NCBI GenBank assembly: GCA_963811575.1
Contig: CAWERY010000015.1
Location: 8,325 to 72,324 of the forward strand
From: an uncultured Solibacteraceae bacterium
Lineage (GTDB): Bacteria; Acidobacteriota; Terriglobia; Bryobacterales; Bryobacteraceae
Reading direction: 5' to 3'
Length of the DNA stretch: 64,000 nt
The translations under genes and the position numbers were made by a program. Shown piece by piece: positions 18,861 through 47,879 of the stretch. The stretch's first letter is position 1. Every line of letters starts with the position of its first letter. The notes under the pieces were generated by a model, which was not told the DNA's origin, ran no database searches, and worked only from the letters and a program-made list of their open reading frames with translations.

Positions 18861-18869
18861 GGCGTTACT

Positions 18870-28731: not shown

Positions 28732-30036
28732 TTAAGTAGCCTCACGCGACAGGGGTAGCAGTGTGGGCTTGACCGGTTGGCCGTCCGGTAGAGTACGCAA
28801 CGAAATTCCAGCAACTTCGAGAGATGGTGACGCGCCTCCCACGTCCAAGTGGACACGTGCGTTGGCGTCGTCGCTGGTGGGTGTGAATTCCAACTCGAAA
28901 TCCCTCCATTCCGTGATCAGTGCGATGGATTGGTACAGGCCTAGTCCGGTCCAGGGCGCATGGGCCGCGGCGAAGCCGACGTCAATTGTCCGAGGCTCGT
29001 CGGCGCGGGCGCGAAAGCTCACAGCGTATCGCTGTCCGGCTGTCACCGGGTGATACGGCAGGTTGATTTGTATCTGGGACTCGGCCCCGGCGCCTAGCTC
29101 GTCGATTGCGAGGCGAATCGAATTGGGAAGGCCGGACGCAAGCAGTCGCGCGTGGTTTCCTTCGTCCAACCGGAGTTGAATCCTCGCGTCCTCAACGGCA
29201 CGGCATAGCAAGTTCCAAACCGCGGGATCGGTGATGTTTCGAAGGCGCAAATAGGTCGCAAACCAGTTGAGAAAGTATCCGCGAACGGCGTTGTAGTCCC
29301 CCCTCTCCGCGCTGGCCGCATCACAGGAATCAGCGTGAATCCGGTACTTGTCCCATTGTTCGCCGCACACGAAAACGGCCGTGTGAAGATAGATCTTCAC
29401 CAGGAAAGCCTGGTCGTCGTAGAGCTGGAGAATACCCCGAAAATGTTCCTCGAAGCCGCCGACCATGTCGACGACATGACGGCGCACCAGGAAATCGGAA
29501 GGCGGCGGTGTGGTCGCGGGACCGAGCGGATATAGTTTCGAAAGAAGGGACGGCGGATCGAATAAGGTATCCGCCGGGATGCCTGGATCCGGCACGTGGT
29601 CTCGGGTGGCATCCTCCGGGTCTCCCGTCCAGCTATACCAGTAAAGGCTGGCTCCGTAGATCATCCCCGCTTCCGGGTAGCTCTTCATCAAGGCGACCTG
29701 CCGTTCCAATTTGTACGGCAGCCAAACGTCGTCCGAATCTAGGAAAGCCACCAATTGCCCCCGCCCATGCCTAATGCCAAGATTGCGTGACGCGGACATG
29801 CCCCGGTTGCAGTGGGACTCGTGCTCCAGGTAAGCGATGCGCCCAGAAAAGCGGGAAGCATAGGACTGTGCGATTTGGGTACTGGAATCGGAGGAGCCGT
29901 CGTCTACCAGCATCAATTCCCAAGAATCGAAGGTCTGGTTGATGATGCTCTCAATTGCTTCCCGAATGTATTTTTCCCCATTCAGAAAAATCATCACGAC
30001 GGAAACAAGCGGTTCCGCCACGGGCTGGGGCGGCAT
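28732..30036 (-). CDS. family-2 glycosyltransferase with C-terminal CenC/CBM4_9-like beta-sandwich module
   Basis: GT2 motifs VSVVMIFLNGEKY, LVDDGSSD, FLDSDD. The C-terminal 115 aa (28792-29139) are paralogous to modules in three neighbouring genes. Confidence 0.85.
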   Translation of the reverse strand: MPPQPVAEPLVSVVMIFLNGEKYIREAIESIINQTFDSWELMLVDDGSSDSSTQIAQSYASRFSGRIAYLEHESHCNRGMSASRNLGIRHGRGQLVAFLDSDDVWLPYKLERQVALMKSYPEAGMIYGASLYWYSWTGDPEDATRDHVPDPGIPADTLFDPPSLLSKLYPLGPATTPPPSDFLVRRHVVDMVGGFEEHFRGILQLYDDQAFLVKIYLHTAVFVCGEQWDKYRIHADSCDAASAERGDYNAVRGYFLNWFATYLRLRNITDPAVWNLLCRAVEDARIQLRLDEGNHARLLASGLPNSIRLAIDELGAGAESQIQINLPYHPVTAGQRYAVSFRARADEPRTIDVGFAAAHAPWTGLGLYQSIALITEWRDFELEFTPTSDDANARVHLDVGGASPSLEVAGISLRTLPDGQPVKPTLLPLSREAT

Positions 30037-30038
30037 TG

Positions 30039-31514
30039 CTATATCTCCCGTTCACGGGCATCCGGATGGAGGACGACTGCGGACACCTCTACGGAAGTGG
30101 AATCGCCTCCGGCATCGAAATGGATGCGTGCGTCACCATCACTCGCAGTGGGCACCAGCGGAATGCGAAAGGTGCGCCATTCGGAGTCGATGTCGACTAC
30201 AGAATACAAGCCGAGTCCGCACCACGGTTCATGAGCTTGGGCAAACCCGACCGCGAACTTTCGGGGAGCATCCGCGCGGGCCCGAAAAGAAATGTCGTGA
30301 GCGCATCCCGATATGACGGCGAATCCGGGAAGGTTCAGTTGAATATCATAGGCGGTTGAAGTCTGCAGAGCATCGATCTGGATCCGCACGTGATCCGGAC
30401 TTCCGTCTGGAAATCGCAGGTAGGCCACATTACCTCCGGCGACTCGCAGGTCCCACTTGCCGCGGATCAAAACCGGCCTGCCCCCGCCATGGTTTGACGG
30501 CGCCCACGCGGCGGATTCTCGCGAGCCCTCAAGCCACCCCTGCAAGTGCGCGTAGAATTCATCCCTACCCCAGTTACACACCTGTGCCCGGGGAAGCTGA
30601 AAGCGGTCTGCGTCGCGATCGACCGGGCCAGCGACAGTGGCGCAGGCGCACTGAAAACCGCAGCGGCGAACCAACTCCACAGAATCAGCGTTGTTCGCGC
30701 CGTATGGGTAGGCGAAGCTCAACACCGGGCGGTGCAACTCCGCCTCGAGCCGCTCCTTGCAAACCGCGATTTCTGACAGTTGCTGTTCCACACTCAGCTC
30801 GGGCAGCGCGGGATGCGTGACCGTGTGCGCTCCGATTTCGATGAGTTCTCCTGCCGCCAGTTCGGTCAGCTCCGCGGTCGAGAGTCCGCGGTAATCCTCG
30901 CGAGAACGGGCGGAGAGGTTCGCCCATGCATAGAGGGAATCGAGAATCTGAAGGCGTTCCGCGTCGGGCAGCAACTGTAGCAGGCGCCAGAGAGAGGCGT
31001 AAAGAAAATGCCTGGCCGTAGGCGGCTCTTCGTCCGCCTTCCAGGATTGGTAACTTTGCGAGTCGGCAACGGTGTATTCCTGCGCTTCCGTTAGCTCCCA
31101 ACGATGGCTATTACCCTTGATGGAAAGAGAGAGCTCGGGGGGAAGTGGGCCCGGCTCAAGAAAGATCCGGCCCAACGCGTCCCACCAGAGTTCACGCTTC
31201 GAGCCCAGAAATCCGGTGGTTACGAACACCGTGGCAGGAATGCCGTGGCGTTGGAGCAAGGGCTTCGCGGCAAGCAGGTTGCTGGCATAACCGTCATCGA
31301 ACGTGATCGCGACCGAACGCGGCTGCAGTTCGCGAGCGATGACGGCGCGATTGAGCTGCTGCAAGGACAAAGGGTGCGCGTGCTCTTTCAGTACCTCGAG
31401 ATGCGCAGCGAAGTTCGCGGGAGAGACGCTCGACGAAAATGGGTCAGGGCGCCCTTCGCAGACGTGGTGATACATGAGGATCAGGCCTGCCGGAGCCGCG
31501 GCGTTCGCGCTCAC
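30039..31514 (-). CDS. polysaccharide deacetylase (NodB/CE4-like) with C-terminal CenC/CBM4_9-like module
   Basis: NodB-type motifs ITFDDGY and GAHTVTHP...L. C-terminal YDIQLN...FRARADAPR...GFAQAHEPWCGLGLY...EWRTF...DARIHFDAGG (30066-30455). Confidence 0.8.
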   Translation of the reverse strand: MSANAAAPAGLILMYHHVCEGRPDPFSSSVSPANFAAHLEVLKEHAHPLSLQQLNRAVIARELQPRSVAITFDDGYASNLLAAKPLLQRHGIPATVFVTTGFLGSKRELWWDALGRIFLEPGPLPPELSLSIKGNSHRWELTEAQEYTVADSQSYQSWKADEEPPTARHFLYASLWRLLQLLPDAERLQILDSLYAWANLSARSREDYRGLSTAELTELAAGELIEIGAHTVTHPALPELSVEQQLSEIAVCKERLEAELHRPVLSFAYPYGANNADSVELVRRCGFQCACATVAGPVDRDADRFQLPRAQVCNWGRDEFYAHLQGWLEGSRESAAWAPSNHGGGRPVLIRGKWDLRVAGGNVAYLRFPDGSPDHVRIQIDALQTSTAYDIQLNLPGFAVISGCAHDISFRARADAPRKFAVGFAQAHEPWCGLGLYSVVDIDSEWRTFRIPLVPTASDGDARIHFDAGGDSTSVEVSAVVLHPDAREREI

Positions 31515-33466
31515 AAAGCAGCTTTCTGTGCGCGCAGGCCGATGGTTACCTCGTACCCGCGCTCAGCGAAGTCCAGCTCTTCACGCGTCAACTCGCCGGC
31601 GGAGATTCCGTACAGAAACGAGGCCGCGGAGAGCACGTTTCCGTAGGCATCGATACGGATATTCTCCGGTGCGAACGCTTCCTCGAACAGGCGCCTGCCG
31701 GATAACGGTGTGAAGCTCCAGTACCAGTTGTCGCACCAATCTCGATCGTTGTTCTGGCTGATCCCTGGAAAAGTAGTGAGCACCACGCCGCCGGGCTTGA
31801 GGATTCGGTACAGGGTTCGGATCACGGCGCGAAGATCATAGATGAGCTGTAAGGTCTGAGTGAGTACGATGCAATCGAAGGTGCCGTCCGGAATATGGGG
31901 AGCGTCGGTGAGGTCGCCCACGATCGTCGCCAGCGGATTGCCTTCGACAACGTGCAGGACGTCGCTCCGCGTAACGCGGCTGCCGCCGAATCTTCGCGAG
32001 TAGGTGCTGTCTTCGATTTCCATGACGCGTCCGCGTATGTCCGCCGCCTGGCGAGCCAGATAATTCTCGATGTAATAGCGGTCAATCGGCAGGCCCCGAT
32101 CATATCCCCACATCCGGCTTATCGGAGTAACGCGCCGCAGAGTTCCGAACTGCAAACTGCCGGGCGCGGGGGTGCCGTCGGCGGCCCGTAAGGTGACGTC
32201 CGCCAGTTCGACCGCGGCAGCGTCGCCTGCCAGATCGAAGTGAATGCGGGCGTTCTCGTCGTCGGCAGTTGCGGTAAATTCTTCGTCAAAGGTCTGCCAG
32301 TCCGGCCCAAGCGAGATGCTTCGATAGAGGCCAAGTCCATCCCAGGGTTCGTGGGCCATTGCGACACCAAGATACGCCAGCCTGGAGCTGTCGGCGCGCG
32401 CCTCGAAGGTCACCCGGTAGGGATGGTTGGCAAGCACGCGGAGCCGCGGTTGATTGAGTTGTATGTCGTAACTGGAGCGACTCTCGTTGTTCTGAATGGC
32501 TACCCGGATCGCTCCCGGTTTTCCGGAGAGACTGGTCAAGCGCGCCATGTTCGGGGGCGCGACACGGAACAGCCAGCCGTCGAAATGCGTGACCTCCTGC
32601 GGTGCACTGCGTGTTTCGAACGCCTTGTGCAGGGCAGCGCGGACCGCGGGGTCGTGATTTCCCCGATCATTCAGATGTCGCTCGAGCCACTTCAGGAAGC
32701 GGGAGCGGACGGCATCGTACTGCCCTGTCTCAGTCCCTACCGAAAGACACGACTCGGGATGAATGCGGTATTTGTCCCAGCACTCGCTGGAGACAAAAAT
32801 GTGCCCTTGCAGATAGACCTTGGCCAGAAAAGCCTGATCTTCGTACAAACCGCGGAACTCCTCCTCAAACCACATCGACTCTTTCAGCGATTCCCTCCGA
32901 ACGAGGAGATTTGACATGGAGGGAGCGGTCGCCTGGCCAAGCGGATACAGCTTGAGAAGTAACTCAGGCGGGGCGTAGAGGGTTTCCGTTTTGACTCCGG
33001 GATCGGGAATGAAGTCACGCTGGAGATCTTCGGGTTTGCCGGTCCAACTGTACCAATACCGGCTCAAACCAAAGATCATAGCGGCCTGGGGCTGGGCCTC
33101 CATGATTTCGATCTGGCTGCGAAGGCGATGGGGCATCCATACATCATCGGCGTCAGAAAGGCCAATATGCGAGGGCACGCGCGACTCCAGCACTCCGGGA
33201 TGCCGGAATTCCGCGGTTGCTGTGCCCCTCATGTTCCAGGTATCGCGCTCGGGCGGGATTCTGGCTGACCGACTTTTGTGCGATCGCGGTACTCGAATCG
33301 GAGGAGCCGTCGTCTACAAAGAGTAGCTCCCAGTTCGAGTAGGACTGCGCCAGCACACTCGCCACAGCCTCTTCCATGTAAGTCTCGGCATTAAAGAAGG
33401 GCATTACGATCGAGACTAATGGTGTTCCGGATGAGATCGGATTCAGAGGCTTTCCGCTGCCGGCAT
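31511..33466 (-). pseudogene. tri-domain GT2 / CBM-like module / class I SAM-methyltransferase, one clear frame break (~33172) and one tentative (33445-33463)
   Basis: N-terminus PLVSIVMPFFNAETY...LFVDDGSSD...NRGIPASRSAGVARA shifts to HIGLSDADDVW. CBM-like module at 32183-32575. C-terminal methyltransferase (VMEIED...FDCIVLTQTLQLIYD...LKPGGVVL) at 31514-32152. The ATG overlaps the wzt stop (TAATG). Confidence 0.7.
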
Positions 33467-34231
33467 TAAACGGTCGCGTGGCTCCATGTCTGGACGTCCG
33501 CGTCCGCCAGGTATTGGGGGATGACGATTCGGGTAGGGCCGTAGGCGGCAACACGCCCGCCGCGCAGCCACAAGGCGTCTTCACATAAAGATTCCACCAT
33601 GCCCGCATCGTGGGTAACGAGGACAATCGTGCAGCCTCCCGCCTTGAGCTGCCGGATGCGATCCAGGCACTTGTGTTGAAAGGCCACGTCGCCGACCGCC
33701 AGGACCTCGTCAATCAGCAGGATATCCGGCGCGGAATGAATGGCGATGGAGAAGGCCAGGCGCATCTGCATGCCCGATGAGTAACATCGCAAGGGGCTAT
33801 CGATGAAATCATGAAGCTCCGAAAATTCGACGATGGCATCGAAGCGTTCCCGGACTTCCTTCTTCGTGAGTCCGCCCACTACGCCGTTTACGAGGACGTT
33901 CTCGCGGCCTGACAATTCGGGGTGAAAGCCGGCTCCGAGATTGAGCAGCGCGCCGATCCGGCCTTCGATTTCGATCACGACCTTCATCGGGCCGGCCGAC
34001 ACCGCCGATCAGGCGCAGCAGAGTGGATTTGCCCGCTCCATTTCGCCCGATGACGCCGACGGTCCTGCCGGCGGGAATTCGCAGGTTCACTTCGCGCAAG
34101 CCCCAGAACTGTTCCGCCGGCAGCAGTTTTCGAAAACCGCGAAGCAGCGCTTCGTGAATCGTGCCGGGCGTGTCGGTATGATAGCGGCGGTACTTCTTGC
34201 CTACGTCTTTAATGAAAATTGGAATTCCCAC
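33466..34231 (-). pseudogene. wzt: polysaccharide/O-antigen-type ABC exporter ATP-binding protein (short form, no C-terminal binding domain), frame broken once (~33980)
   Basis: GTG start overlaps the wzm stop (TAGTG). Walker A GRNGAGKSTLL, then a shift, then GRIGALLNLGAGFHPELSGRENV, signature SSGMQMRLAFS, Walker B ILLIDE. About 254 aa once restored. Confidence 0.85.
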
Positions 34232-35022
34232 TACAGTTCCTCCACAAAGCGATGCCGTGCCAGATTGAATGCGGTGCAACCCAGCGTCAGTACAACCACC
34301 GAGAGGCCGGCGACACCCAAGAGCGGAATAGGGTCGGGCCACGTCCCGCGCATCAGAACGGCGCGGTATCCATCGAGGATCATGGCCACCGGGTTCATGA
34401 GCATGATCGAGTGATAGGGCTCCGGGATCGTGCTGACATCCCAGAAGACGGGGGTCAGATAGAAGAATAGAAAGAGACCGATGCCGAGAAGATACTGAGT
34501 ATCGCGAAATCTTACTTGCAGCGTGGCGACGATATAGGCCAGGCTCGTAACAAATAGAAACTGGACGAGGATGATCAGGGGTAGTGCAGCCAGAGACGGA
34601 TTCAGCCGGTAGCCATCCCTGACCAGAAACACGGCCAGAATGGGAAGGGCCAGCAGGAAGTGCACCAGGTGGGAAAGCACCGTGATCACCGGCAGAAGCG
34701 GAAGCGGGAAGCCGACTTGTTTCACCAGGTCCCGGTTATCGACGACGGTCATGGCGGAAACCAGCAGCGATGCCTGGAGCCAGGTCCACGGCAGGATTCC
34801 GGTAAACAGGAAGGTCGTGTAGTGGGGAATGTTCAAGGGTACGATGCCGTTGAATACCACGTACAGCACCAGCAGCTGCGCCAACGGTACCAGGAGGGAC
34901 CATGCGATTCCGAGAAGCGAGCGTTTGTAGCGCAGTTTGAAATCGCGAGCGACTAGTATACGCACCAGATCATACTTATGCCGCCAGCTATTCGACTGAT
35001 TCCGAACTTGATATCGATTCAC
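34231..35022 (-). CDS. wzm: ABC-2 type polysaccharide export permease
   Basis: 263 aa with six predicted TM segments. N-terminal RDFKLRYKRSLLGIAWSLL motif typical of Wzm/TagG permeases. Confidence 0.85.
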   Translation of the reverse strand: MNRYQVRNQSNSWRHKYDLVRILVARDFKLRYKRSLLGIAWSLLVPLAQLLVLYVVFNGIVPLNIPHYTTFLFTGILPWTWLQASLLVSAMTVVDNRDLVKQVGFPLPLLPVITVLSHLVHFLLALPILAVFLVRDGYRLNPSLAALPLIILVQFLFVTSLAYIVATLQVRFRDTQYLLGIGLFLFFYLTPVFWDVSTIPEPYHSIMLMNPVAMILDGYRAVLMRGTWPDPIPLLGVAGLSVVVLTLGCTAFNLARHRFVEEL

Positions 35023-35032
35023 CTTAATCCCC

Positions 35033-36463
35033 TCATCCTGCCATTTGCCAAACCCCTATTTTTCGCCGGGTCAATAACCGGATTCGTTCATGAAAGCGTT
35101 TTTCGCAGACAGAAACATCGAAGGACCGGCGAATTTTTTCAGCGGCGGCCCGGCCCATGCGTTGCCGTAAACCAGCGTCGTTCCGTAAACTCGAGATCGC
35201 TGCCGCCAGCGATTTTGCATCGCGCTGCGGAACGATTAGACCGTCCTGCCCGTGATCCACGACTTCGACGATGGAGCCGGCATCGGTAGCGACCGCCGGC
35301 AGGCCGGTTGCCATGGCCTCCAGGAGCGCGGTGGGAATTCCATCCTTGTCGCCGCTTTCGGTTTCGACGAAGGGCGCAATGAACAGGTGCGCCTGCTGCA
35401 GGAACTGCTGAATCTCCGCACTCGAACGCCGGCCTTCCAGATGGAACGCGTTTCCGATTCCGAGTTCGAGAATTTTCTGGTCGAGCGCACGGGCGTACTC
35501 GCGGCTGGGTTCGTTGTCGTCCACGCCGCCGAGTATGTGCGCCGAAACCGGGACGCCCGAATCGATCAGGTGGCGGACGGCTTCGGCCAGGTAGAGCAAG
35601 CCCTTTTTGGGCTCGATGCGGCTGACGCAGACCAGGCGAAACGGAGTGCCTTCGGCCGGCGCGCTACGGAGGGTTGCGGGAAAGCGCCTGGAATCGATCG
35701 CGTTCGGTTTGACGAGAATGCGGTCGGGGTCCACCGCCGGGGCGATTGCCATGAGCTCCCGTTTAATCCGGTTCGAAGTCGCGATTACCAGGCCGCACTG
35801 CCGGATGTGGAGTGCTACGACTTTCAGGGCGTAATCGTCCAGCATGTGGTCGGCATAGCAGCTCACGCCGCGCGGGATATCGAGGAGATACGACGCGAAC
35901 AGCGTGAACAGCGCGCCTTCGTAGAAGAAGTAGGAGTGCAGGTAGTCCGGCCGGCAGGCTTCCACGGTTCGTGTGAAGGCAAATGCCTGTTTGAAGTGAT
36001 AGTGGTTTTGAAGTTCCTCGGGCGTTATGCCGGATGCTTCACAGACCATTGCGACCAGGCTGCGAACCTTTTCCGGCATGCGTTCGCAATAGTAGGCATA
36101 GTCGCGCTCGGACACGCTGTAGTGTAAGAACAGTTTGCGCTTGGAATGCCAGACCCGTGAGAATTGCCGGGGCAGAAAGCTTCGCGGATTCAATTTGGAA
36201 TAGAGGAAGCGCAAGCGGAAGCCGCCGCGTACGAGCTCCGAAAGTTCCTGGTAGACAAAGGTCTGGGAGTAGATGGGAAACTCCCAGCAGGCGGTGGAAG
36301 CTACGCGAACGCCGCTGCCGAAGGCTGGAATCCAGCGTTCCACCGAAGGCGGAAGCGCTGAAACCGGTGAAGGCGGTGCGCCGCGGTTTCCTCGTCGGCG
36401 CCCAGCGGAAAACCTGCCGGCGGGCCATCTGGCCTGGAGTTGTTGAAGCATCTCTTCAATCAC
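35033..36463 (-). CDS. family-4 (GT-B) glycosyltransferase
   Basis: C-terminal EPKKG...GDKDGIPTALLEAMATGLPAVATDAGS motif (E-x7-E region). GTG start overlaps the upstream stop (GTGA). A later start (GTG, ~aa 41) is possible. Confidence 0.8.
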   Translation of the reverse strand: MIEEMLQQLQARWPAGRFSAGRRRGNRGAPPSPVSALPPSVERWIPAFGSGVRVASTACWEFPIYSQTFVYQELSELVRGGFRLRFLYSKLNPRSFLPRQFSRVWHSKRKLFLHYSVSERDYAYYCERMPEKVRSLVAMVCEASGITPEELQNHYHFKQAFAFTRTVEACRPDYLHSYFFYEGALFTLFASYLLDIPRGVSCYADHMLDDYALKVVALHIRQCGLVIATSNRIKRELMAIAPAVDPDRILVKPNAIDSRRFPATLRSAPAEGTPFRLVCVSRIEPKKGLLYLAEAVRHLIDSGVPVSAHILGGVDDNEPSREYARALDQKILELGIGNAFHLEGRRSSAEIQQFLQQAHLFIAPFVETESGDKDGIPTALLEAMATGLPAVATDAGSIVEVVDHGQDGLIVPQRDAKSLAAAISSLRNDAGLRQRMGRAAAEKIRRSFDVSVCEKRFHERIRLLTRRKIGVWQMAG

Positions 36464-38854
36464 CCAGGCCGCCCGTCATTGGCCGCGCCGTCGGTCGCGG
36501 CGCCCGCCTGGATCACTTCCGGGGCCTGCTCGACCGCTCGAAGCACGACCGAGGTCAGATCGACTCCAAGCGCCCGGCCTCCCAGATCGAAGTGAATGCG
36601 GGCGTCTTCGTCATCTTCCAAAGCGACGAACTCCTCCTCAAAAGTCTGCCATTCCGCGGTCAGACGGACCGTGGTATACATGCCCAGGGTTGTCCAGGGA
36701 TCGTGGGCCTTGGCGAAGCCCACGCCAATCTCGCGGGGCCGTTTGGCCCGCGCCCGAAAGGCCACCGTATATCGAACTCCGCCGGCCACCTTGAGGCCGA
36801 GGCGGTTCAGTTGAATGTCCCAATTGGTTTTGGTTTCCGCTTTGGTGATGCCGATTTTGACCATCTCGTGGTCTTCACGCGGATAGATCAGGCTTGCCTG
36901 GTTGCGGTCACCGACGCGGAGGTGCCAGCGGCCTTCGAGCGCGGGATCGGCGAGAGTGTCCGCGCCGAGTGCGGGCTCCGGTGCGGCCGACAGTTCCGTG
37001 GTGGCGGGTTCGGGTTCGCGGCGCTTCGTGACGCGCAGCCACGAACCGAGCCGCATCCAGGTATCGTGTTGCAGGTCTTCGATCAGCAGCGCGCGTACGG
37101 TTGCAGCTTCGCGCCACTTGGACAGTTCGCCCGAAACGTATTCGACCTGCTGCTCCAATTCCTGAGCCCGTCCTCGCACGGCGTTCAGTTCCAGGCCGAA
37201 TGAGTTGCCATAGCTGTTCGAGTTCGCGAATGCGGGTGCGAGCGCCGGTGAGTGCCACTCCAACGCCTGTTCCGTGCTGCTCGAGCTGGTGAATGCGGGC
37301 GCGCGCGCCGGTGAGTTCCAGGGCTAACGCCTGTTCGTGCTGCTCAAGTTCTTGGATGCGTGCCTGCCCGCCGGCCAAATTGAGATCCATTAAAATTACG
37401 CGCTGCTCCAAACCTAAAATTGTGCGGCCGGCGCCGGCCAATTCCTCGATGGCCGTTGCGCGGCTGCGCTCGAGATGTTCGCTGTGCTGCATGGCAGTCT
37501 GCAGTTGCGCCGTTAGGGCGGCTGTCCGTGTTTCGAATTCATGTAGTTCCCGCTGCGATTGTTCTTTCGCCAAGGCCAGCTCTGCTACCTGCCCGCTCGA
37601 GGCTTGCAGTTCAGCGCGAAGTTTGGCGGTCTCGGCCGCCAGTTCCGCGTTACGCCGTTCCCACTCCTGGGTGGAGGCACGCCACGAATCCCGGTCTGCC
37701 GTCAGCGAGGCAGAGCCTTCGGTGATTCGCGCGATGGTTTCCTGCAAGGCGGCGGCGGACGCCTCCTCATGATCCATCACATCGGCCCAAACCGGCGAGT
37801 TCCTAAGGATCAGCTTTTTCAACTCTCTCAGGGAGTTCTCAGCCAAGTGGGCAGTTTGCGTGTGCAATTCAAGCGCCTTCAGAAAGTCGGCCGCCGGCTC
37901 ACTGATGCGTCGCCAAAGGTCTTCCCAATCCTGCCGCGCAAGACACTCAGGGAGCGGGGCCGCGTCGAAAATGCATTGTGCGATGGCATTCGGATAGAGG
38001 CCGGTATACTGCTCACCGCCAACCAATTGCAGTAGCCGCGCGAGCATCCTTTCCGGCGCCAAGTAATAGACCTGCGCACCAGGAAAGTAAGTAGTACTGC
38101 TGGCTCTCTACGGTCGAGCCGGTAAGGCCATTCGCATACTGCGGCAAGGGATTACGGACTCTCGGGTCTGGTCCGTGGCCCCGACGCAGTACGGTAAGTC
38201 CGTCGCGAAGCATTTGTTCCGCGTCCAGCGAGGCGGAATGCGGCATCATTCGATAGTACGCAAGTACCTCCGGAACGGCGCCAAAGGTGGCGCCGCAGCG
38301 AGCAATTCTCTGCCAGAGGTCCCAATCGGGAGACTTTCTGAGACTGATATCGAATGATCCGGCTGCCTCTACCATCGACCGCCGGACCAGGCAGGCGTGT
38401 ACCGGGAAGGCGGCGCGGCGGGCCAGGACCGGGAACAGATCGCCGGTTGGCGGCCTATATTCTTCAATGAGTTCCGCTCCATTTTGCGCTACCCGGGCCC
38501 AACCGCAGTGCACGGCGTCCAGCGATGGATCCGCGTCAATCGCGGATGTGAGCCGTTCCAAATAGCATGGCGAAACCCAGTCATCGGCATCCAGAAAGAG
38601 AAGCCACTCAAAGCGAGCGTGGGAAATGCCGGTATTCCGTGCGGCGCTTTCTCCTCCGTTTGGCTGGGAGACGACGCGTATCCGGACATCGCGCTCCGCC
38701 AAAGCCTCCGCGATAGCGCGGGTAGCATCGTGCGACCCGTCATCCACGATCACGATTTCCCAGTCCGTTGCGCGATTGATTCTCAATCGACGAGACTGCG
38801 GTCCATCAACGTGGTAGCGGCGTTGTAGGCGGGGATGATAACACTTACTTTCAC
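36460..38854 (-). pseudogene. GT2 glycosyltransferase / long coiled coil with 21-aa repeats / C-terminal CBM-like module, three frame breaks
   Basis: GTG 38854 with GAGG 9 nt upstream. KVSVIIPAYNAATTL, break at ~38786, then DWEIVIVDDGS...LDADD. Break at ~38038 into a helical region. Break at ~37196 inside the repeat array. CBM-like module at 36538-36927 (WDIQLN...FRARAKRPR...GFAKAHDPW...DARIHFDLGG). Confidence 0.7.
37149..37464. repeat. five tandem 63-bp units (21 aa, 3 heptads) inside the coiled-coil coding region
   Basis: GCTGCTC(C/G/A)A... recurs at 37149, 37213, 37276, 37339 and 37402. The spacing is 63 bp, except 64 bp for the first unit, which holds the frame break. Protein units follow L.L(T/A/N)G(A/G)(R/Q).RI..LEQ(H/L/Q). 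Confidence 0.8.
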
Positions 38855-39361
38855 GGAAAATTGCCTCGTACAACTCTGATGGCTATCAAAATGGGACGAT
38901 TCGGAAGGGGCACTCCAATGATCGGACTGCCATGCCGGTTAGCCATTAAAGGTTCCGAAATCTCCCATCGCATTCTTGTCGAAAAGTTCGCATTGCTGCC
39001 CATTTTTATTCCAACCCTCACAGATATCCGAGGTGCCCCATCGTAAATCGCTTGAGCCGGTGAACGTGCAGCTCTCATGTTCCCAACGTGCTTCAGTCAG
39101 GGAACGCTCCCAAGCGATGATGTGGTACCCGATTAAAGGCACTTGCCTTGCCAATCATTTCCCGAGGAGAAGAATCGGGCTTGGCGCGATGCCGTAACCT
39201 TTCTTGACGGCGTGGCGCCGAGTTAGTCGCGAGCCTCGCCGCTGCCGGACTGGCATTGTTCGATGCCTTTATTCCTGGCAGTGAAACTGCTAACCCGCTA
39301 CTTAAGGCAAATCCGCCGCAACTGGTGTTACCCGGCAGCGCGGCACAAACACGCAACCTCA
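38855..39361. promoter_or_regulatory. divergent intergenic control region between the two arms of the glycan locus
   Basis: About 500 bp between a minus-strand GT2 start (38854) and a plus-strand GT4 start (39362). Visibly more AT-rich than the flanks. No specific promoter boxes could be assigned with confidence. Confidence 0.4.
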
Positions 39362-41392
39362 ATGACGCACCTATTCATCTGTCGGGAGTATCCGCCAGCT
39401 CCTTATCCACCGGGGGGCATTGGCACCTACGTCAGGCACATCTGCCGTTTGCTTGCCGAATCCGGCGACAGAGTTCATGTCATCGCACAACGTTGGGAAG
39501 GCGCTTCGGCTCCGTTAACGGTATCGGATGATGGCAAGTTAGTTGTGCATCGCGTCTCACCCAATGATTCGGCGGCCGAGATGGCTCAGGATGCCGGTCA
39601 CAACTCGTTGATTATCGACAGCTTGACGAAAGGAGACTGCCCCTCTCAGGCTTTCAGCTGGCAGGTAGCGGGCCTGGTAGAGCAACTGGTTATATCCGAA
39701 GGCATTGATGTAATCGAGGCGCCCGAATGGGAGGCACCCCTTTACTTTTACCAACTTCGACGATCTTTAGGGATGGGGCCGGCCAAGCAGCCGCCTTGCC
39801 TAATCCACTTACATTCGCCCTCTGAGCTCATCTTTCGACATAACCAGTGGGATGTGACCCTCTCCGACTATGCGCCTCTCCGGCAGTGCGAACGGTATTG
39901 CATCCAGAACGCCGATGCACTGCTCAGCCCGAGCCGCTATTTGGCCCGCGAAGCTGAGGAGCTTTTCGGACTGGCGGCCGGTCAGGTCCTGGTAATCCCA
40001 TATCCTTTGGGAGATAGTTGCGGGATCGAGCGTCCGGCGGCCGTGTGGCGGCGCGATTCGGTTTGTTTCACAGGGCGTCTCGAGCTGCGAAAAGGCGTCG
40101 TGGAATGGGTGGACGCGGCGGTAAAGGTCGCGCAGACACATCCCACGGTTAGTTTTGACTTTATCGGGAGCGACACCTCCCTGGATGGCGGCCCTGGCGC
40201 TTCGGTCCGCCGTTTTCTTTGGGACCGAATCCCTGCCGGGTTGCGGCCGCGATTTCATTTCCACGGCAGCATGAGCCGGGAGAAGTTGAGGAAGGCTTTG
40301 GCGGGCACTCCGATCGCCGTGGTGCCTTCGCGTTGGGAGAATCTTCCGTATAGTTGCATTGAAGCGATGAGCTCCGGGCTGCCGGTGCTGGTTTCGCCCC
40401 ACGGCGGCATGCGCGAACTGATCGGGCATGGCGAAAGCGGTTGGATCGCGGCCGATGCAACTGCCGCAGCCTTGGCCGCGGCATTACGTACCGCGCTTGA
40501 GACACCCCCTGCACGACGAGCGAAGATGGGCCAAAACGCAGCCGCGGCCGTCAGCCGGCACTGCTCGAACCAGACTGTGGTGAAGCGCCATCTGGAATTG
40601 CGGCGCCGGTTAACCGAACCGATGACGGACAGGCCGGCGGCGATGGCGGGAATTCCCACGGAGGCCCGGCGCGGCATGGCCGTGGTGGTGACTTGCGGGG
40701 ACCGAATCGGTCTGCTGCCACAGTGTTTGGAGCATCTTGCGCGGCAAACGGAGTCTGCGGCCCGCGTAGTGGTGATCGGAAGCTCCAAGGCCTTGGAATG
40801 GTGCCGCGCGTCAGGAGCCGGCTTCGTGGATGAGCAAACGCCATCGTCACGCGAAGCCGCGCTGCAGCAGGTCTTCGACGCCGCACCGCACGTCGCCGGC
40901 GTGGTGTTGGTGGATGCGGGTGTTCAGTTGGAACCGCACTGTCTGGCCGCATTCGCAGCGGTTCTGCAACGCCGGCCGGACGCCGGAATGGTCGCGGGTT
41001 TCAGCCGCTACGCAGGGCAGACTGCTGATTTGAATGTGACGCCGAACTTCGATTTGCAATCGCTCGAAGCCACCGGCGAGTGCTTCTGCCTGGCGGTGCG
41101 GACCGAAGCGCTGCAAGACCGTCATACCGCCGGTACGGGGTGGGCCACCGTAACGTATCCCGAAGTTCTGGTCTTGGCGCCAGCCCGCAAACCATCCGGC
41201 GGTGCCGCCAAAAAACGCTATTCGGCCATGGCACTGGCGCAGCGCACGTCTTCGAAACTGATGTGGACCTGGTTCCTTGGCGCCCCCGTCGCGGAAAAAG
41301 TGAGATGGGTGGGACGGGCTCTGTTCCAGCCTCGCCGTGCCGCTCAGTGGGTGAGCTGGCAAGTTCGTACCGCATCGACGAGGACCCGTTGA
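39362..41392 (+). CDS. bifunctional glycosyltransferase: N-terminal GT4 (GT-B) plus C-terminal GT2-like domain
   Basis: MTHLFICREYPPAPYPPGGIGTYV N-terminus, with ...VVPSRWENLPYSCIEAMSSGLPVLVSPHGG. The C-terminal ~270 aa (MAVVVTCGDR...VVLVDAGV) resemble a degenerate GT-A fold. Confidence 0.75.
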   Translation: MTHLFICREYPPAPYPPGGIGTYVRHICRLLAESGDRVHVIAQRWEGASAPLTVSDDGKLVVHRVSPNDSAAEMAQDAGHNSLIIDSLTKGDCPSQAFSWQVAGLVEQLVISEGIDVIEAPEWEAPLYFYQLRRSLGMGPAKQPPCLIHLHSPSELIFRHNQWDVTLSDYAPLRQCERYCIQNADALLSPSRYLAREAEELFGLAAGQVLVIPYPLGDSCGIERPAAVWRRDSVCFTGRLELRKGVVEWVDAAVKVAQTHPTVSFDFIGSDTSLDGGPGASVRRFLWDRIPAGLRPRFHFHGSMSREKLRKALAGTPIAVVPSRWENLPYSCIEAMSSGLPVLVSPHGGMRELIGHGESGWIAADATAAALAAALRTALETPPARRAKMGQNAAAAVSRHCSNQTVVKRHLELRRRLTEPMTDRPAAMAGIPTEARRGMAVVVTCGDRIGLLPQCLEHLARQTESAARVVVIGSSKALEWCRASGAGFVDEQTPSSREAALQQVFDAAPHVAGVVLVDAGVQLEPHCLAAFAAVLQRRPDAGMVAGFSRYAGQTADLNVTPNFDLQSLEATGECFCLAVRTEALQDRHTAGTGWATVTYPEVLVLAPARKPSGGAAKKRYSAMALAQRTSSKLMWTWFLGAPVAEKVRWVGRALFQPRRAAQWVSWQVRTASTRTR

Positions 41393-44070
41393 GTTCACGC
41401 GTAACGGCAGGGGACGAGAGGCCGCTGGTTTCGGTTGTCCTCCCTGTCTATAACGGCGAGCGCTTCGTCGCCCAGACGATTGAATCCGCGCTCCGCCAGA
41501 CCTATCGGAACCTCGAAATCATCGTAGTGGACGATGGATCGACCGATCAGACCGCATCGCTGATCCAGAGTATTGCGGCGCGCGACCCGCGGGTTCGAAT
41601 CTTTCACCAACCCAACAGCGGCGTAGCGCGGGCCAGAAATCGCGGGCTGGAAGAATCACGCGGCGAGTTTGTGGCGCCGTTGGACTCCGACGATCTCTGG
41701 GATCCCGCCAAGATCGAAGAGCAGGTCCGGATCATGCAGCAAGGCGGCGACGCGATTGGCCTGGTCTACTGCTGGTGGGTTTGGATCGATGAGAAGGGCG
41801 TGATTCTGGACCGGTCGCCTTCGTGGGAAATCGAAGGGGATGCCGGTGACCTGCTGCTGCAGGTGAACTATACGGGTAACGCGAGCGTACCGTTGTACCG
41901 GCGCAAGTATCTGCAGGAGGTCGGCGGATACGACGAGAGCATGGAGCAGCGAGACGGCCGGGGATGCGAGGATTGGGACGTCGCGTTAAGAATCGCCGCG
42001 CGGTACCCGGTCGCGGTCGCACGCCAACTGCTGGTGGGCTACCGGCGCTTGCCGGATAGCATGTCCACGCACTGCGATGAGATGTGGCGGTCGCGGCAGT
42101 TGTTGATCAGCGGGGCAGTGGAGCGAGATCCGGATTTAGATCCGCAATTACTTCGGCGTTCCACCGATCAGTTCGCGCTATACGTGGCCGGAGTACTGTT
42201 CCGATCGGGCGCGTATGTACGATCGTTCGGCTGGGCGGCGCGGGCCTGGCGGACGGGCCTCATCTTCCGCGTTTTGCCTTACGGGTTTCGCGCACTGGCC
42301 AACGGCGCATTGTCTCGCCGTTCGCTTTCCAAGCAAGTGATGACGGCGGGAGCCGGACTGGACAGCAGCGCCATTCCCGCAGCTCTGATTCCCTACGACC
42401 GCTTGTATCCGGCGCAAGCCGAAGCCGGCCCGGTTCGGAGTTCCGGCGTGCTGCAGTCCAAGATCGTGCAGTTCTTATTCGTAATTCTGACCTTTCTTTT
42501 CGTGGCGGGACTGCACCGGGATGACGATGGTTTGGCGTTTCAGGGGGACGCGCCCCGGCATGCGATCAATGGCCTGTTCTGGTATGACATGGCTACCAGC
42601 GGCACCACGGACTTCATCGGTTTTGCGACGCGTTATTACGCGCGTTATCCGGTGATCAATCCCATCACCTACCCGCCGCTTTTCTACCTGCTGGAAGGCT
42701 GCGCGTTTCGGATTTTCGGGCCTACGCCCTACGCGGCCAAAGCGCTGATTTTGCTGTTCGGGATTTTGGCGGGTTGCTACAGCATGGCGTGGGCGAGGCG
42801 CTGGGTAGGACCGGTTTACGGCTGGACGGGGGTCTTTCTCGCCCTCTTGCCCGGCGTTGTTGTGTGGTCGACCACGGTGATGTTGAACGTGCCGGCCCTG
42901 GCCCTGGGGATGGCGAGCCTCTACCACGCGCGGCGCTGGGTGGAATCCGGCGGCGGCAGGCGAGCGGTAGTGTGCGGCGCCCTCTGTGCGGCCACTCTGT
43001 TCACCTACTATCAAGGCGGCATCGCGATTGCGATTGGCCTTGTGTGGACGCTGTTTTTACGATCAAGCCGCAACCGCTCCCGGCAGGCCCTGGCAATTGC
43101 CGGGGTAGCATTACTTGCCGCGATACCGGTGCTGCTGGCGGCCGCATTTGCCCCGATGTTCCTGCAGCGCAATGTGCCGAGCCTGGCGAAGTTGATGGGA
43201 GCAGAAACCTTCACCTTTTACCTATCCAGTTTGCCGGCGTTGGTGGGTGCGGCGCCCTTAGCGCTCGGTACGCTCGGGATTGTGCTCGGGATACGCAGTG
43301 CTGTGTGGAGGAAGGAAGCCCAACTGGTCGCGCTGTGGATCCTCATACCACTGACGGCATTCTCCCTTTTGCCTGCGAAAGACTCGCGCTACGTGCTGAT
43401 TGTTGCCCCGGCCTTCTTAGTGGGAGCGGCGATCGGGATCGCCTCCCTGGCCGCGCAATACCGGGCTGTCTGGCAATCCGCAGTCTGGCAATCCACTGTC
43501 TGGCAATCCACGGTCTTAATCGCGATGCTCGCGTTGGGCGCCTGGAGTGCATCGCGAGTTCCCACACTGCACAAATCCGGCTTCCGCGCGGTGGCGTTGT
43601 ACCTGCAGCAGCACGCTCCGGACGAAGCCGTTCTCTACGACGGATACCATGACGGGCTTTTCGGATTCTATCTGCGCGCATCGGATCCGGGTTTCAAGCG
43701 CAGGCTTGTGTTGGGGCAGCAGGTGCTTTATCGTTTCGGACCAGCCACGACCTTCGACTGGGTGGAGACTGTGAACGCCGATTCACGAGCGGCGGTGGTC
43801 CGGTCGCTGCAGATGGAATCGGGCTGCCGGTGGCTGGCAATTGAAGTGGGAGCCAATTCGGAATGGGCGCGAGGGCAGCGTCTGTTGCGAGATGCAGTGA
43901 GAGGGCCGGAGTTCGAACTGGTGCGGACTTTTCCCGTGATCGCGCCGAATGCGACCCGCGTGGATCTGTACCGCCAGGTGGGAGCGGTGGCGCCGAAATC
44001 CACAATCGATCTGAAAATGACTTCGCTCGGCGAACACATTTTTCGCGGTGTTCAACCGATAACCAGATAG
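41389..44070 (+). CDS. fusion of GT2 glycosyltransferase with ArnT/PMT-like (GT-C) polytopic membrane glycosyltransferase domain
   Basis: TTG start overlaps the previous stop (TTGA); an upstream ATG is less likely. GT2 motifs VSVVLPVYNGERF, VVDDGSTD, LDSDD. Then at least 9 hydrophobic segments with a YPPLFY-type loop, as in GT-C enzymes. Confidence 0.75.
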   Translation: MSSRVTAGDERPLVSVVLPVYNGERFVAQTIESALRQTYRNLEIIVVDDGSTDQTASLIQSIAARDPRVRIFHQPNSGVARARNRGLEESRGEFVAPLDSDDLWDPAKIEEQVRIMQQGGDAIGLVYCWWVWIDEKGVILDRSPSWEIEGDAGDLLLQVNYTGNASVPLYRRKYLQEVGGYDESMEQRDGRGCEDWDVALRIAARYPVAVARQLLVGYRRLPDSMSTHCDEMWRSRQLLISGAVERDPDLDPQLLRRSTDQFALYVAGVLFRSGAYVRSFGWAARAWRTGLIFRVLPYGFRALANGALSRRSLSKQVMTAGAGLDSSAIPAALIPYDRLYPAQAEAGPVRSSGVLQSKIVQFLFVILTFLFVAGLHRDDDGLAFQGDAPRHAINGLFWYDMATSGTTDFIGFATRYYARYPVINPITYPPLFYLLEGCAFRIFGPTPYAAKALILLFGILAGCYSMAWARRWVGPVYGWTGVFLALLPGVVVWSTTVMLNVPALALGMASLYHARRWVESGGGRRAVVCGALCAATLFTYYQGGIAIAIGLVWTLFLRSSRNRSRQALAIAGVALLAAIPVLLAAAFAPMFLQRNVPSLAKLMGAETFTFYLSSLPALVGAAPLALGTLGIVLGIRSAVWRKEAQLVALWILIPLTAFSLLPAKDSRYVLIVAPAFLVGAAIGIASLAAQYRAVWQSAVWQSTVWQSTVLIAMLALGAWSASRVPTLHKSGFRAVALYLQQHAPDEAVLYDGYHDGLFGFYLRASDPGFKRRLVLGQQVLYRFGPATTFDWVETVNADSRAAVVRSLQMESGCRWLAIEVGANSEWARGQRLLRDAVRGPEFELVRTFPVIAPNATRVDLYRQVGAVAPKSTIDLKMTSLGEHIFRGVQPITR
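43468..43515. repeat. in-frame 15-bp tandem repeat x3.2 (GTCTGGCAATCCNCN) encoding VWQS(A/T)
   Basis: gtctggcaatccgca / gtctggcaatccact / gtctggcaatccacg / gtc. Lies within the membrane domain of the GT2-GT-C fusion. Confidence 0.9.
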
Positions 44071-44073
44071 CAA

Positions 44074-47792: not shown

Positions 47793-47879
47793 GTCATCCG
47801 GCGCGGGGTTGAAGTCACCCGGGCCGACCGTTTGCAGGAGCCGCAAAATGCCGCGCTACCTGAAGACCCTCGCGCGAGA

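Follow-up and report, generated by a model that had tools for sequence, protein, structure and literature searches.

The window, that is, the whole 64-kb stretch of DNA that was analysed, contains a glycan locus in which an ABC transporter of the Wzm/Wzt type is encoded among glycan enzymes. On the minus strand lie an intact ORF for a 434 aa GT2 (28732..30036; Pfam Glycos_transf_2, 1e-31), an intact ORF for a 491 aa CE4 (NodB-type) polysaccharide deacetylase (30039..31514; Polysacc_deac_1, 8e-24), a GT2-methyltransferase gene (31511..33460, start approximate; Pfam GT2, CBM_4_9 and Methyltransf_11), the gene for the ATPase Wzt (33466..34240, start approximate; ABC_tran, matched in two frames), the gene for the ABC-2 permease Wzm (34231..35022), a GT4 glycosyltransferase gene (35033..36463; Glycos_transf_1, 7e-30) and a gene for a GT2 followed by a coiled coil (36460..38880, start approximate). 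Wzm has five hydrophobic segments, matches the NCBIfam Wzm/RfbD-type permease and is 91% identical to its ortholog in locus L005. According to a Pfam scan, the remaining glycan locus (39263..50183) encodes a GT4, a GT2 fused to a PMT_2/GT-C-like membrane domain, a further GT4, a methyltransferase-TPR-methyltransferase and a Methyltransf_24-TPR protein. No sugar-nucleotide genes were found within the 64-kb window.

Four enzymes of this locus carry the same module of ~130 aa. An HMM built from the four copies and run against the six-frame translation of the whole 64 kb detected exactly four copies, all on the minus strand (191-221 bits, E 1e-58 to 1e-67). A fifth copy was not found in this search (next-best match E=2.7); 39263..50183 gave no match, and the GT4 at 35033..36463 is likewise module-free. 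Copy 1 (28792..29184, 191 bits) and copy 2 (30066..30455) form the C-termini of the GT2 and the deacetylase, respectively, copy 3 (32183..32575) is located between the GT2 and the methyltransferase domains, and copy 4 (36538..36927, 221 bits) follows the GT2-coiled coil, whose distal end bears the module and not a catalytic domain. Alignment and HMM search bore out the four homologous minus-strand segments reported in the initial annotation, except that copy 1, which had been ended at 29139, is full length and reaches ~29184. Copies 2-4 share 40-46% identity with copy 1, and 28 invariant columns are common to all four. The dN/dS values of the modules (copy 1 0.20, compared with L001; copy 2 0.18; copy 3 0.09; copy 4 0.15; together 0.09-0.20) compare with 0.06-0.23 for the tested catalytic domains and neighbouring genes. 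Purifying selection acts on all four modules, which are ancient paralogs retained together with their respective hosts.

Hydrophobic segments were found in none of the four module hosts, and the deacetylase also has no signal peptide. The hosts belong to nucleotide-sugar- or SAM-type enzyme families and are encoded in a Wzm/Wzt locus, in agreement with their earlier description as cytoplasm-facing; they are soluble, signal-less, cytoplasmic-type enzymes. Membership in the polytopic GT-C enzymes with an extracytoplasmic CBM was considered and rejected, as the hosts lack hydrophobic segments and are GT2, CE4 or methyltransferase proteins.

The reading frames of three genes are broken in the window. 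A net -5 nt lesion is present at 33154-33170 in the GT2-module-methyltransferase gene, a +1 nt frameshift near 33984 in wzt, and the GT2-coiled coil-module gene is distributed over three or four frames with changes near 38795, 38038 and 37300. Intact orthologs of the broken hosts are encoded in L005 (GT2-module-methyltransferase, 655 aa) and in L014 and L006 (GT2-coiled coil-module, 818 and 772 aa); in tblastn, the L006 and L014 proteins span the entire 36460..38880 across differing frames, and the L005 Wzt ortholog lies in one frame with a 10-aa tail. Since both fused architectures occur as intact ORFs in the orthologs, they are correct, and all four host architectures proposed initially could be retained with the amendment that in the window two of these hosts are split over more than one ORF. 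The middle part of the GT2-coiled coil-module protein is long, helical and coiled-coil-like with weak matches to Pfam coiled-coil families; in the L006 ortholog, residues 369-564 match SMC coiled-coil models.

By sequence, the module is related to CBM4. Pfam CBM_4_9 (PF02018, gathering cut-off 25.9 bits) scored 28.3, 25.5 and 31.1 bits for copies 1, 3 and 4, while no match at E<=0.1 was reported for copy 2; 56 of 68 close relatives of the module match this family. A profile of 18 modules matched the CBM4 of T. maritima Lam16A (1GUI) with E 1.4e-16, R. marinus CBM4-2 (1K42, 2Y64, 4BJ0) with E 1e-8 to 3e-7 and the CenC CBM4 with E 3e-3, and one protein alone, P0162, matched 1GUI at 5e-9. The AF2 model of copy 2 (pLDDT 96.4) is all-beta with 10 strands, its best Foldseek match is 1gui_A (E 5.9e-9, TM 0.83, rmsd 2.0 A), and annotated CBM4 modules make up eight of the first 11 matches. 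The jelly-roll carbohydrate-binding fold proposed earlier, together with the structure prediction and Foldseek search suggested as its check, thus came out as a beta-sandwich of the CBM4/CenC family.

In the alignment to 1K42, the aromatic residue of the (Y/W)DIQLN motif falls on W69, its Gln on E72 and the Trp of HxPW on F110. Residues 69 and 110 matter for carbohydrate binding in the CBM4-2 scaffold (PMC2783032), which is of the groove type (type B) and accommodates polysaccharide chains (PMC2099432). Both stacking positions are aromatic in copies 2-4, and among family members with no more than two module copies they are aromatic in 78% (W69) and 92% (F110); copy 1 has a Ser at the W69 position, and its orthologs likewise lack this first aromatic platform residue. 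A cleft signature, Q72/N74/H108/P110/W111/R143/H145/D147, is near-invariant across 47 modules from 18 loci, and the same positions vary in the wider module family. Taking profile and model together, the module is a CBM4-family beta-sandwich, probably of the cleft type, and is predicted to bind glycan.

A relationship to the C-terminal domain of Wzt (Wzt_C, PF14524) was also considered and rejected. In hhalign comparisons with 10 Wzt C-terminal domains the probability was 0.1% (E 0.56), and no Wzt_C Pfam match was obtained on any module host. Nor is the module a Wzt-fused C-terminal domain, as it lies on GT2, CE4 and methyltransferase proteins. The initial statement that modules of this kind also occur on Wzt was accordingly dropped, Wzt_C having no profile similarity to them.

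Among 68 close family representatives, the partner domains were GT2 (15), GDSL/SGNH (7), CE4 deacetylase (6), sulfotransferases (6+2), methyltransferase (3), GT4 (2), sulfatase (2) and GH57 (2). All partner domains found are glycan enzymes, so the module does not behave as a common linker on unrelated non-glycan enzymes, the finding that would have spoken against the initial reading. Related modules are also found on a wide range of unrelated glycan enzymes and as long arrays of tandem copies. About one third of the representative proteins of the wider family (56/156) have an N-terminal hydrophobic segment, showing that the module is not intrinsically cytoplasmic.

Homologous loci fall into two states, with either enzyme-borne modules or a C-terminal extension of Wzt. 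The module-less versions of the host enzymes are ~100-145 aa shorter: GT2-methyltransferase ~545-560 aa versus ~650 aa, deacetylase ~345-348 aa versus 491-497 aa and GT2 ~335-343 aa versus 434 aa. The GT2 of the window is 48% identical (residues 6-281) to the module-less 335-aa GT2 of L017 and the deacetylase 47% identical (residues 10-328) to the 348-aa deacetylase of the same locus, and in both enzymes the module has simply been added at the C-terminus, with no segment lost in exchange. Homologs of the GT2-methyltransferase, of which more than 1000 were found, exist with and without module; in alignment A5, copy 3 is a clean ~125-aa insertion relative to the module-less forms, which carry at its place a basic segment of ~35-50 aa (net charge +1 in one sequence and +4 to +5 in three) of amphipathic character (muH 0.56-0.68), a helix assignment that is a calculation on segments containing prolines. 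Across loci, the members of this enzyme triad acquire or go without the module together. Module-bearing forms fall into at least two clades of the phylogeny, and the multi-enzyme arrangement recurs in Acidobacteriota, Planctomycetota, Gemmatimonadota and Nitrospirota.

The Wzt of the window stops 9 aa beyond its NBD profile match, and no Wzt_C Pfam match was obtained in the window. In seven of eight module-bearing loci Wzt consists of the NBD only (the window, L003, L005, L006, L011, L014 and L099), and one, L008, combines four module-bearing enzymes with a Wzt carrying Wzt_C, so that the alternation is not absolute. In 21 of 22 module-less loci Wzt has a C-terminal extension of 153-179 aa (in four of the 21 recognised as Wzt_C by neither the HMM of this analysis nor Pfam), and in the remaining one it is short. 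Enzyme-borne modules and the Wzt C-terminal domain are almost mutually exclusive across homologous loci (Fisher p ~3e-5, a value that overstates independence because the loci share ancestry). This alternation suggests that the enzymes may have taken over recognition of the glycan chain from the pump. The initial proposal that recognition is held by the enzymes and not by the transporter fits the near-exclusive pattern, but it is one that we infer from related loci, L008 with both features among them.

The explanation we favour, and consider fairly probable, is that a CBM4 module was grafted onto soluble cytoplasmic polymer-acting enzymes of a Wzm/Wzt pathway, namely two to three GT2s, a CE4 de-N-acetylase and a methyltransferase, and docks them on the chain. 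Each module would bind the growing, undecaprenyl-diphosphate-linked chain that the locus produces; one cleft signature common to all copies suggests a single common ligand. Binding would keep each enzyme on its polymeric substrate and act through proximity or targeting, as it does in CAZymes and in EmbC, AftD and ORF12, which are periplasmic GT-C enzymes. Substrate recognition, in other systems a task of the transporter CBD, would in these lineages lie with the enzymes, and the NBD-only Wzt would export whatever they release. In the fourth host, where the module is borne on the distal tip of a ~300-residue coiled coil, it might engage only sufficiently long chains and so possibly, if speculatively, act as a ruler. 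The Wzt CBD is able to work in trans, expressed apart from the transporter (PMC9445017), a precedent for recognition off the pump. Conservation of the cleft across phyla and host enzymes is also compatible with a ligand of a generic kind or with a partner protein that is itself conserved, and the missing first platform residue of copy 1 and its orthologs is a further counterpoint.

Alternatively, the modules could read the finished, e.g. methylated, chain terminus in trans and pass the chain to the CBD-less Wzm/Wzt, which would make them functional analogues of Wzt_C relocated to terminator and tailoring enzymes. The alternation with the Wzt C-terminal domain, the separately functioning Wzt CBD (PMC9445017) and the direct adjacency of one module to a methyltransferase domain are all in line with such a role. 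We nevertheless regard it as somewhat unlikely, as the module is unrelated to Wzt_C, belongs to a groove-type family that binds chains and not ends (PMC2099432), is also present on enzymes that necessarily act before capping (GT2s, deacetylase), and is retained together with Wzt_C in L008.

For this genome alone, and irrespective of the identity of the module, the locus might be decaying, with wzt and two module-bearing genes as genuine frameshifted pseudogenes and their modules as relics. At least five frame disruptions are found within 33-39 kb, and these are not simple homopolymer slips, the net -5 nt lesion being one example. However, unrelated genes along the window likewise show pairs of ORFs that overlap on one strand, a pattern suggestive of assembly error. 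Every tested part has a dN/dS of 0.06-0.23 against the intact Solibacter ortholog, and the related loci are intact; decay is therefore unlikely.

A beta-sandwich without sugar binding that acts as protein-protein adaptor, assembling the four enzymes or docking them to Wzt/Wzm, would account for a signature that hardly varies between phyla or kinds of host, the pattern that a conserved partner would produce, and also for the joint gain or lack of the module in the triad and the deviating platform of copy 1. Yet the conserved residues line the CBM4 sugar cleft, most copies have both stacking aromatics, and tandem arrays and many unrelated glycan-enzyme hosts are usual CBM behaviour, all of which makes an adaptor quite unlikely. 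Targeting to the membrane or lipid carrier, where the module would bind the Und-PP-linked primer or a glycolipid head group in place of an amphipathic anchoring helix, accords with the segment replaced in the GT2-methyltransferase and with cleft conservation across phyla under a generic ligand, but is very improbable given that nothing is replaced on the GT2 and the deacetylase and that the helix is a calculated assignment on proline-containing segments.

In current models of ABC-transporter-dependent glycans (E. coli, Klebsiella, Aquifex), recognition resides in the transporter C-terminal domain and the enzymes are coordinated by being anchored at the membrane, by forming protein complexes and by coiled-coil rulers. 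Docking of the enzymes by their own modules would constitute a second design in this locus and its relatives, with up to four cytoplasmic enzymes bearing the same CBM4-type reader and none on the transporter. No published description of this arrangement was found, and in a recent survey CBMs are unknown on terminator enzymes, save one unexplored prediction (PMC11231755). We tentatively propose that enzyme-borne CBM4 modules and Wzt_C are evolutionary alternatives for one job, a distributed form of recognition or quality control that may have arisen more than once. In one state the pump would inspect the finished chain; in the other each polymer-acting enzyme would have its own reader and the pump would be blind, with the CBM at the coiled-coil tip perhaps serving as length sensor. 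Natural pairs of loci, with modules or with the Wzt C-terminal domain, make the recognition question directly testable, and the modules, modelled as small, well-folded domains, are glycan-binding candidates with potential as probes and in glycan-pathway engineering.

With the CBM4s of glycoside hydrolases (1GUI; R. marinus Xyn10A CBM4-2, 1K42/1K45; C. fimi CenC, 1ULO/1GU3) the module shares a homologous profile, the fold and the cleft aromatics. Those CBM4s, however, bind beta-glucans or xylan and belong to degradative enzymes that are secreted, whereas the module is found on cytoplasmic biosynthetic and tailoring enzymes and has a polar cleft signature of its own that is tightly conserved. 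The ricin-type lectin domain of ppGalNAc-T and CBM53 of starch synthase III are glycan-binding domains that steer a biosynthetic enzyme to existing glycan; such eukaryotic enzymes share this principle but use unrelated domains in other compartments and have no link to an export transporter. Wzt_C (E. coli O9a, R. terrigena, A. aeolicus) is likewise a cytoplasmic glycan reader with a beta-sandwich fold that serves ABC-transporter-dependent pathways, and it is distributed in a complementary manner to the module in homologous loci, but it is fused to the transporter ATPase, reads the chain cap and has no detectable homology to the enzyme-borne module. A CBM attached to a biosynthetic enzyme is also known from mycobacterial EmbA/B/C and AftD and from Citrobacter youngae ORF12 (GT136), and in such extracytoplasmic GT-C enzymes the CBM attaches to the acceptor polysaccharide and improves efficiency (PMC11127046). 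These are periplasmic Ig-like domains of polytopic enzymes, one per enzyme, in contrast to a CBM4 on soluble GT-A, CE4 and methyltransferase enzymes that is repeated on four of one locus. The K. pneumoniae O7 terminator ORF6 and the WbdD/WbbB coiled-coil rulers are likewise ABC-transporter-dependent and combine GT2, methyltransferase and coiled coil in multidomain proteins. The AlphaFold model of ORF6(O7) shows an Ig-like 'CBM' with unexplored function, and recognition of the cap by the Wzt CBD is stated for all terminated systems (PMC11231755). From this paradigm, the window has Wzm and Wzt, but its Wzt lacks the CBD, its module is of the CBM4 type, and the distal end of its coiled coil bears this module in place of a terminating catalytic domain.

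Four copies of a CBM4-family module of about 130 amino acids are encoded on the minus strand of the window, at 28792-29184 (copy 1), 30066-30455 (copy 2), 32183-32575 (copy 3) and 36538-36927 (copy 4). The four segments were alignable across ~130 residues with 28 invariant columns common to all of them, and the other copies were 40-46% identical to copy 1. When an HMM of the four copies was run against the six-frame translation of the whole window, exactly these four were retrieved (191-221 bits), and no further copy was found in the 64 kb, the next best match having an E of 2.7. This difference places the repeat far beyond chance, and the repeat named in the initial annotation is therefore real; its segments were present as named, except that copy 1 is full length and reaches ~29184. 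The Pfam model CBM_4_9 barely picked up the modules (28.3, 25.5 and 31.1 bits at a cut-off of 25.9) and missed copy 2.

When the four window copies and 14 database relatives were combined into an 18-module profile, it matched the CBM4 modules of T. maritima laminarinase (1GUI, E 1.4e-16), R. marinus xylanase (CBM4-2, E 1e-8 to 3e-7) and C. fimi CenC (E 3e-3). The AlphaFold2 model of copy 2 was all-beta with ten strands (mean pLDDT 96.4). In a Foldseek search its top PDB matches were CBM4 modules, with 1gui_A first (E 5.9e-9, TM 0.83, rmsd 2.0 A), and lower matches graded into other CBM families. The jelly-roll carbohydrate-binding fold proposed earlier was thus recovered, with CBM4 structures ranking best. 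CBM4 modules are known from secreted glycoside hydrolases. A relocated C-terminal carbohydrate-binding domain (CBD) of the exporter ATPase Wzt (Wzt_C) was ruled out as the source of the module, as hhalign against ten Wzt C-termini gave a probability of 0.1%, and no Wzt CBD was present in the top 50 Foldseek matches of the copy 2 model.

The modules belong to a run of polysaccharide-biosynthesis genes on the minus strand (28.7-38.9 kb), which comprises a GT2-coiled coil-module protein (about 38880-36460, three frame changes), a GT4 (36463-35033, intact), the permease Wzm (35022-34231, intact), Wzt (about 34240-33466, one frameshift), a GT2-module-Methyltransf_11 protein (about 33460-31511, one lesion), a CE4 deacetylase-module protein (31514-30039, intact) and a GT2-module protein (30036-28732, intact). 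Further GT4, GT2-GT-C and methyltransferase-TPR genes are found on the plus strand to about 50.2 kb. One of the plus-strand genes (41080-44070) joins a GT2 to a large PMT_2/GT-C-like membrane domain (996 aa) and contains the short tandem peptide repeat AVWQSAVWQSTVWQS; it shares about 310 nt with the GT4 ORF before it, possibly through a further frameshift. The glycan locus is flanked by a HEAT_2 and Laminin_G_3 (concanavalin-like lectin) protein in two overlapping ORFs (25013-26600, plus strand). The same type flanks the distantly related module-bearing locus L099 (22742-22997), and as a conserved neighbour it may be functionally linked. No sugar-nucleotide genes hinting at the polymer were found within the window, and when the host enzymes were searched against NCBIfam and the PDB, only generic GT2, CE4 and GT4 similarity emerged, with no named equivalog.

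Unlike Wzm, which has five hydrophobic segments, the module hosts have none, and their enzyme families depend on nucleotide sugars or SAM. Where export relies on an ABC transporter, synthesis of the lipid-linked polymer is finished in the cytosol (PMC9445017). Taken together, this puts the modules in the cytoplasm, on enzymes that act on the polymer.

With local HMMs, 98 loci were annotated, and L099 was added; each Wzt was classed by how far it extends past its nucleotide-binding domain (NBD). Seven module-bearing loci (the window, L003, L005, L006, L011, L014 and L099) had an NBD-only Wzt with a tail of 4-15 aa, and one, L008, had a long tail (171 aa) that matches Wzt_C; in no other locus were module-bearing enzymes found together with a Wzt_C-bearing Wzt. 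Among module-less loci, Wzt carried a long tail (153-179 aa) in 21 and was NBD-only in one (L068). A 4-sequence Wzt_C HMM matched 11 of the 21 long tails and missed the other 10, six of which gave weak Wzt_C matches in Pfam, so that four of the 21 matched neither. In the methyltransferase-anchor loci only, six short tails and one long tail accompanied the module, and none short and 17 long its absence. The module and the Wzt C-terminal domain largely alternate, with a Fisher p of about 3e-5 to 5e-5 that overstates the evidence because the loci share ancestry. In NJ trees, which are crude distance trees and in which some 'module-less' calls may be divergent modules, module-bearing forms fell into at least two clades with module-less ones between them, and Fitch parsimony gave 9 changes. 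A single gain of the module found no support in these trees, and the separation of the clades argues against a single historical accident.

We infer that through its module each enzyme would stay bound to the nascent chain carried on Und-PP, gaining proximity much as CAZymes and periplasmic GT-C enzymes do through their CBMs; those of the GT-C enzymes bind the acceptor polysaccharide (PMC11127046). Chain recognition in these lineages would then be located in the enzymes and not in the pump. The Wzt CBD is functional in trans (PMC9445017), and a recognition domain therefore need not be covalently joined to the transporter. The modules could also be readers of the chain cap that act in trans, a role for which this property of the Wzt CBD speaks but which we consider rather unlikely. 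The module of the coiled-coil protein, which comes after a helical stretch of roughly 300 residues, could speculatively serve as a length sensor. The coiled-coil region itself contains near-repeats of about 21-22 aa of the form GGQARIQELEQHEQALALELTGARARIHQLEQHGTGVGVALTGARTRIRELEQ (~37300-37560, minus strand).

The hosts of copies 1 and 2 are intact, whereas the other two are frameshifted in the window. Relative to intact orthologs, the GT2 of the GT2-module-methyltransferase has a net change of -5 nt at 33154-33170 and Wzt has +1 nt at ~33984, and the GT2-coiled coil-module protein switches frame at ~37300, ~38038 and ~38795. Further stretches with putative disruptions lie at 25013-26600, 26756-28673 and 39263-44070, and the lesions do not have a simple homopolymer-slip character. 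A syntenic locus with intact genes in a Candidatus Solibacter MAG (L005 and L001, 73-91% protein identity) confirmed the architectures that the initial annotation had read across the frameshifts. Between the window and this ortholog, dN/dS was 0.09-0.20 for the four modules and 0.06-0.23 for the tested catalytic domains and neighbouring genes. The low values show that the modules are maintained by purifying selection. Local pseudogenisation would account for the broken frames; since overlapping same-strand ORF pairs also occur in unrelated neighbouring genes elsewhere in the window and dN/dS is low, the disruptions suggest assembly error and not decay, and we regard pseudogenisation as unlikely.

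The closest relative of each window copy was its ortholog in L005/L001 (81-91%), and two copies paired next by host type with a module of the Bryobacteraceae locus L006 (67% and 53%). This pairing with orthologs, at only 40-46% identity among the four themselves, ruled out recent duplication within the locus or concerted evolution. Judged by these identities, the four copies are old paralogs retained with their hosts.

HMMER alignment to wild-type CBM4-2 (1K42) placed the aromatic residue of the (Y/W)DIQLN motif on W69, the invariant Gln of the module on E72 and the Trp of HxPW on F110. The binding site of CBM4-2 is a groove (type B) into which polysaccharide chains fit (PMC2099432), and residues 69 and 110 were reported to be important to carbohydrate binding in its scaffold (PMC2783032). 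In 47 modules from 18 loci, Q72, N74, H108, P110, W111, R143, H145 and D147 were almost invariant, and this near-invariance of positions aligned with the CBM4-2 cleft held across host enzymes and phyla. Position 69 was W, Y, F or H in most of the 47 modules, and Ser in a GT2-borne group that comprised all stand-alone GT2-module proteins examined, including window copy 1. This Ser in place of the first cleft aromatic was seen at 28792-29184 and in the orthologous modules of L001, L014 and L098 (also L002), with every other cleft residue kept; such modules are a conserved subtype whose binding is possibly weaker or altered. In the wider family, both aromatic positions were largely retained and the polar cleft positions were variable (Q 47%, N 17%, H 27%, R 54%, H 20%, D 40%). 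Such a pattern would be expected if specificity had diversified across the family but not among the modules of these homologous loci, which would share one ligand; the simplest candidate would be the related polymer made by those loci. The cleft conservation may also fit a generic ligand or a conserved partner protein; that the module is a protein-protein adaptor is quite improbable in our judgement.

Of the more than 1000 homologs of the GT2-module-methyltransferase, those with the module measure about 650 aa and those lacking it about 545-560 aa, and a third form, of about 1000 aa, is fused to the deacetylase. In an alignment of module-bearing and module-less homologs (A5), the module was a clean insertion of ~125 aa, and the module-less enzymes had a short basic segment in its place. 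The replaced segment (A5 columns ~300-400; P0220, P0244, P0262 and P0276) is about 35-50 aa long and amphipathic in character, with a hydrophobic moment of 0.56-0.68 and a net charge of +1 in one sequence and +4 to +5 in three, and may be a membrane-surface helix superseded by the module. Targeting of the enzymes to a primer or to the membrane, as such a helix might suggest, is a very improbable role for the module.

In L013, L015, L016 and L017, the GT2-methyltransferase and the adjacent deacetylase (345-348 aa) were all without the module, as was the adjacent GT2 (335-343 aa) where present; as far as the module start, the deacetylase and GT2 of L017 shared 47-48% identity with their window counterparts. 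Rosetta-stone fusions were seen in P0177, P0179, P0184, P0193 and P0195 and in L099 (10001-12997 and 18139-21273); they join the GT2-module-methyltransferase to the CE4 deacetylase (about 1000 aa), and a GT2-module-GT2-deacetylase protein of 1044 aa also occurs. On the strength of such fusions, the window neighbours at 31511-33460 and 30039-31514 probably act together.

An exhaustive profile search with the module profile, counted in representative clusters, yielded 5905 at E<=1e-3 and 593 at E<=1e-30. The partners among 68 close representatives were GT2 (15), GDSL/SGNH (7), CE4 deacetylase (6), sulfotransferases (6 and 2), methyltransferase (3), and GT4, sulfatase and GH57 (2 each), and carbamoyltransferase fragments were also among the module matches. 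A linker found on unrelated non-glycan enzymes, which had been named as a result that would speak against a glycan-binding role, is not what this survey of 68 representatives revealed. An N-terminal hydrophobic segment was present in 56 of 156 representative proteins, and the broad family is therefore not confined to the cytoplasm. High on the match list were long arrays of tandem modules, some of them preceded by a UbiA prenyltransferase domain; P0021 (2994 aa), P0027 (1317 aa) and P0041 (1019 aa) have an N-terminal UbiA followed by 5 to 19 tandem modules. In 'three-component' glycan modification systems, the lipid-linked pentofuranose donors come from UbiA-type enzymes (PMC11127046), and the UbiA-array proteins may therefore be another biosynthetic use of the module.

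A genome scan with the 4-sequence module alignment showed that the arrangement recurs across phyla, with loci from Acidobacteriota, Planctomycetota, Nitrospirota, Gemmatimonadota and a deltaproteobacterial MAG, all related loci being from uncultured MAGs or metagenomes. Most scanned loci carried the module on two to four different enzymes or twice in one protein, frequently near Wzm/Wzt. A radical SAM/SPASM-TPR protein with a C-terminal module was seen in L008 (5068-7317, minus strand) and L099 (14605-16857), and in the similar gene of L100 (8325-9944) the module was not detected. L100, itself module-bearing, also encodes a sulfatase (LtaS-like)-CBM_4_9-GDPD protein (17022-18866) preceded by an LtaS_N gene, which places the module on a phosphodiester-handling enzyme; an LtaS_N-sulfatase gene also lies inside the L014 locus.

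To our knowledge, the transporter-borne Wzt_C is the only kind of glycan reader so far known in this pathway. Full-text literature searches turned up neither an account of GT2, CE4 or methyltransferase enzymes with CBM4-type modules, in agreement with the initial annotation, which had believed the organisation to be undescribed, nor one of the alternation between module and Wzt_C. For cytoplasmic pathway enzymes, the literature found mentioned a CBM only for the K. pneumoniae O7 terminator, an unexplored Ig-like 'CBM' (PMC11231755); according to its authors, CBMs are unseen in other terminators, and a Wzt CBM is present in all terminated systems (PMC11231755). CBMs on biosynthetic enzymes are known for the GT-C enzymes EmbA/B/C, AftD and ORF12 (PMC11127046), which are periplasmic, whereas the present modules are cytoplasmic. 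In WbdD- and WbbB-type proteins the coiled-coil end is occupied by the terminating enzyme (PMC11231755), whereas in the coiled-coil protein of the window it bears a CBM4-type module. The domain family and the principle are known already; what is new is the context, in that the modules lie in the cytoplasm, are shared among several enzymes of a single locus and complement the domain on the transporter.
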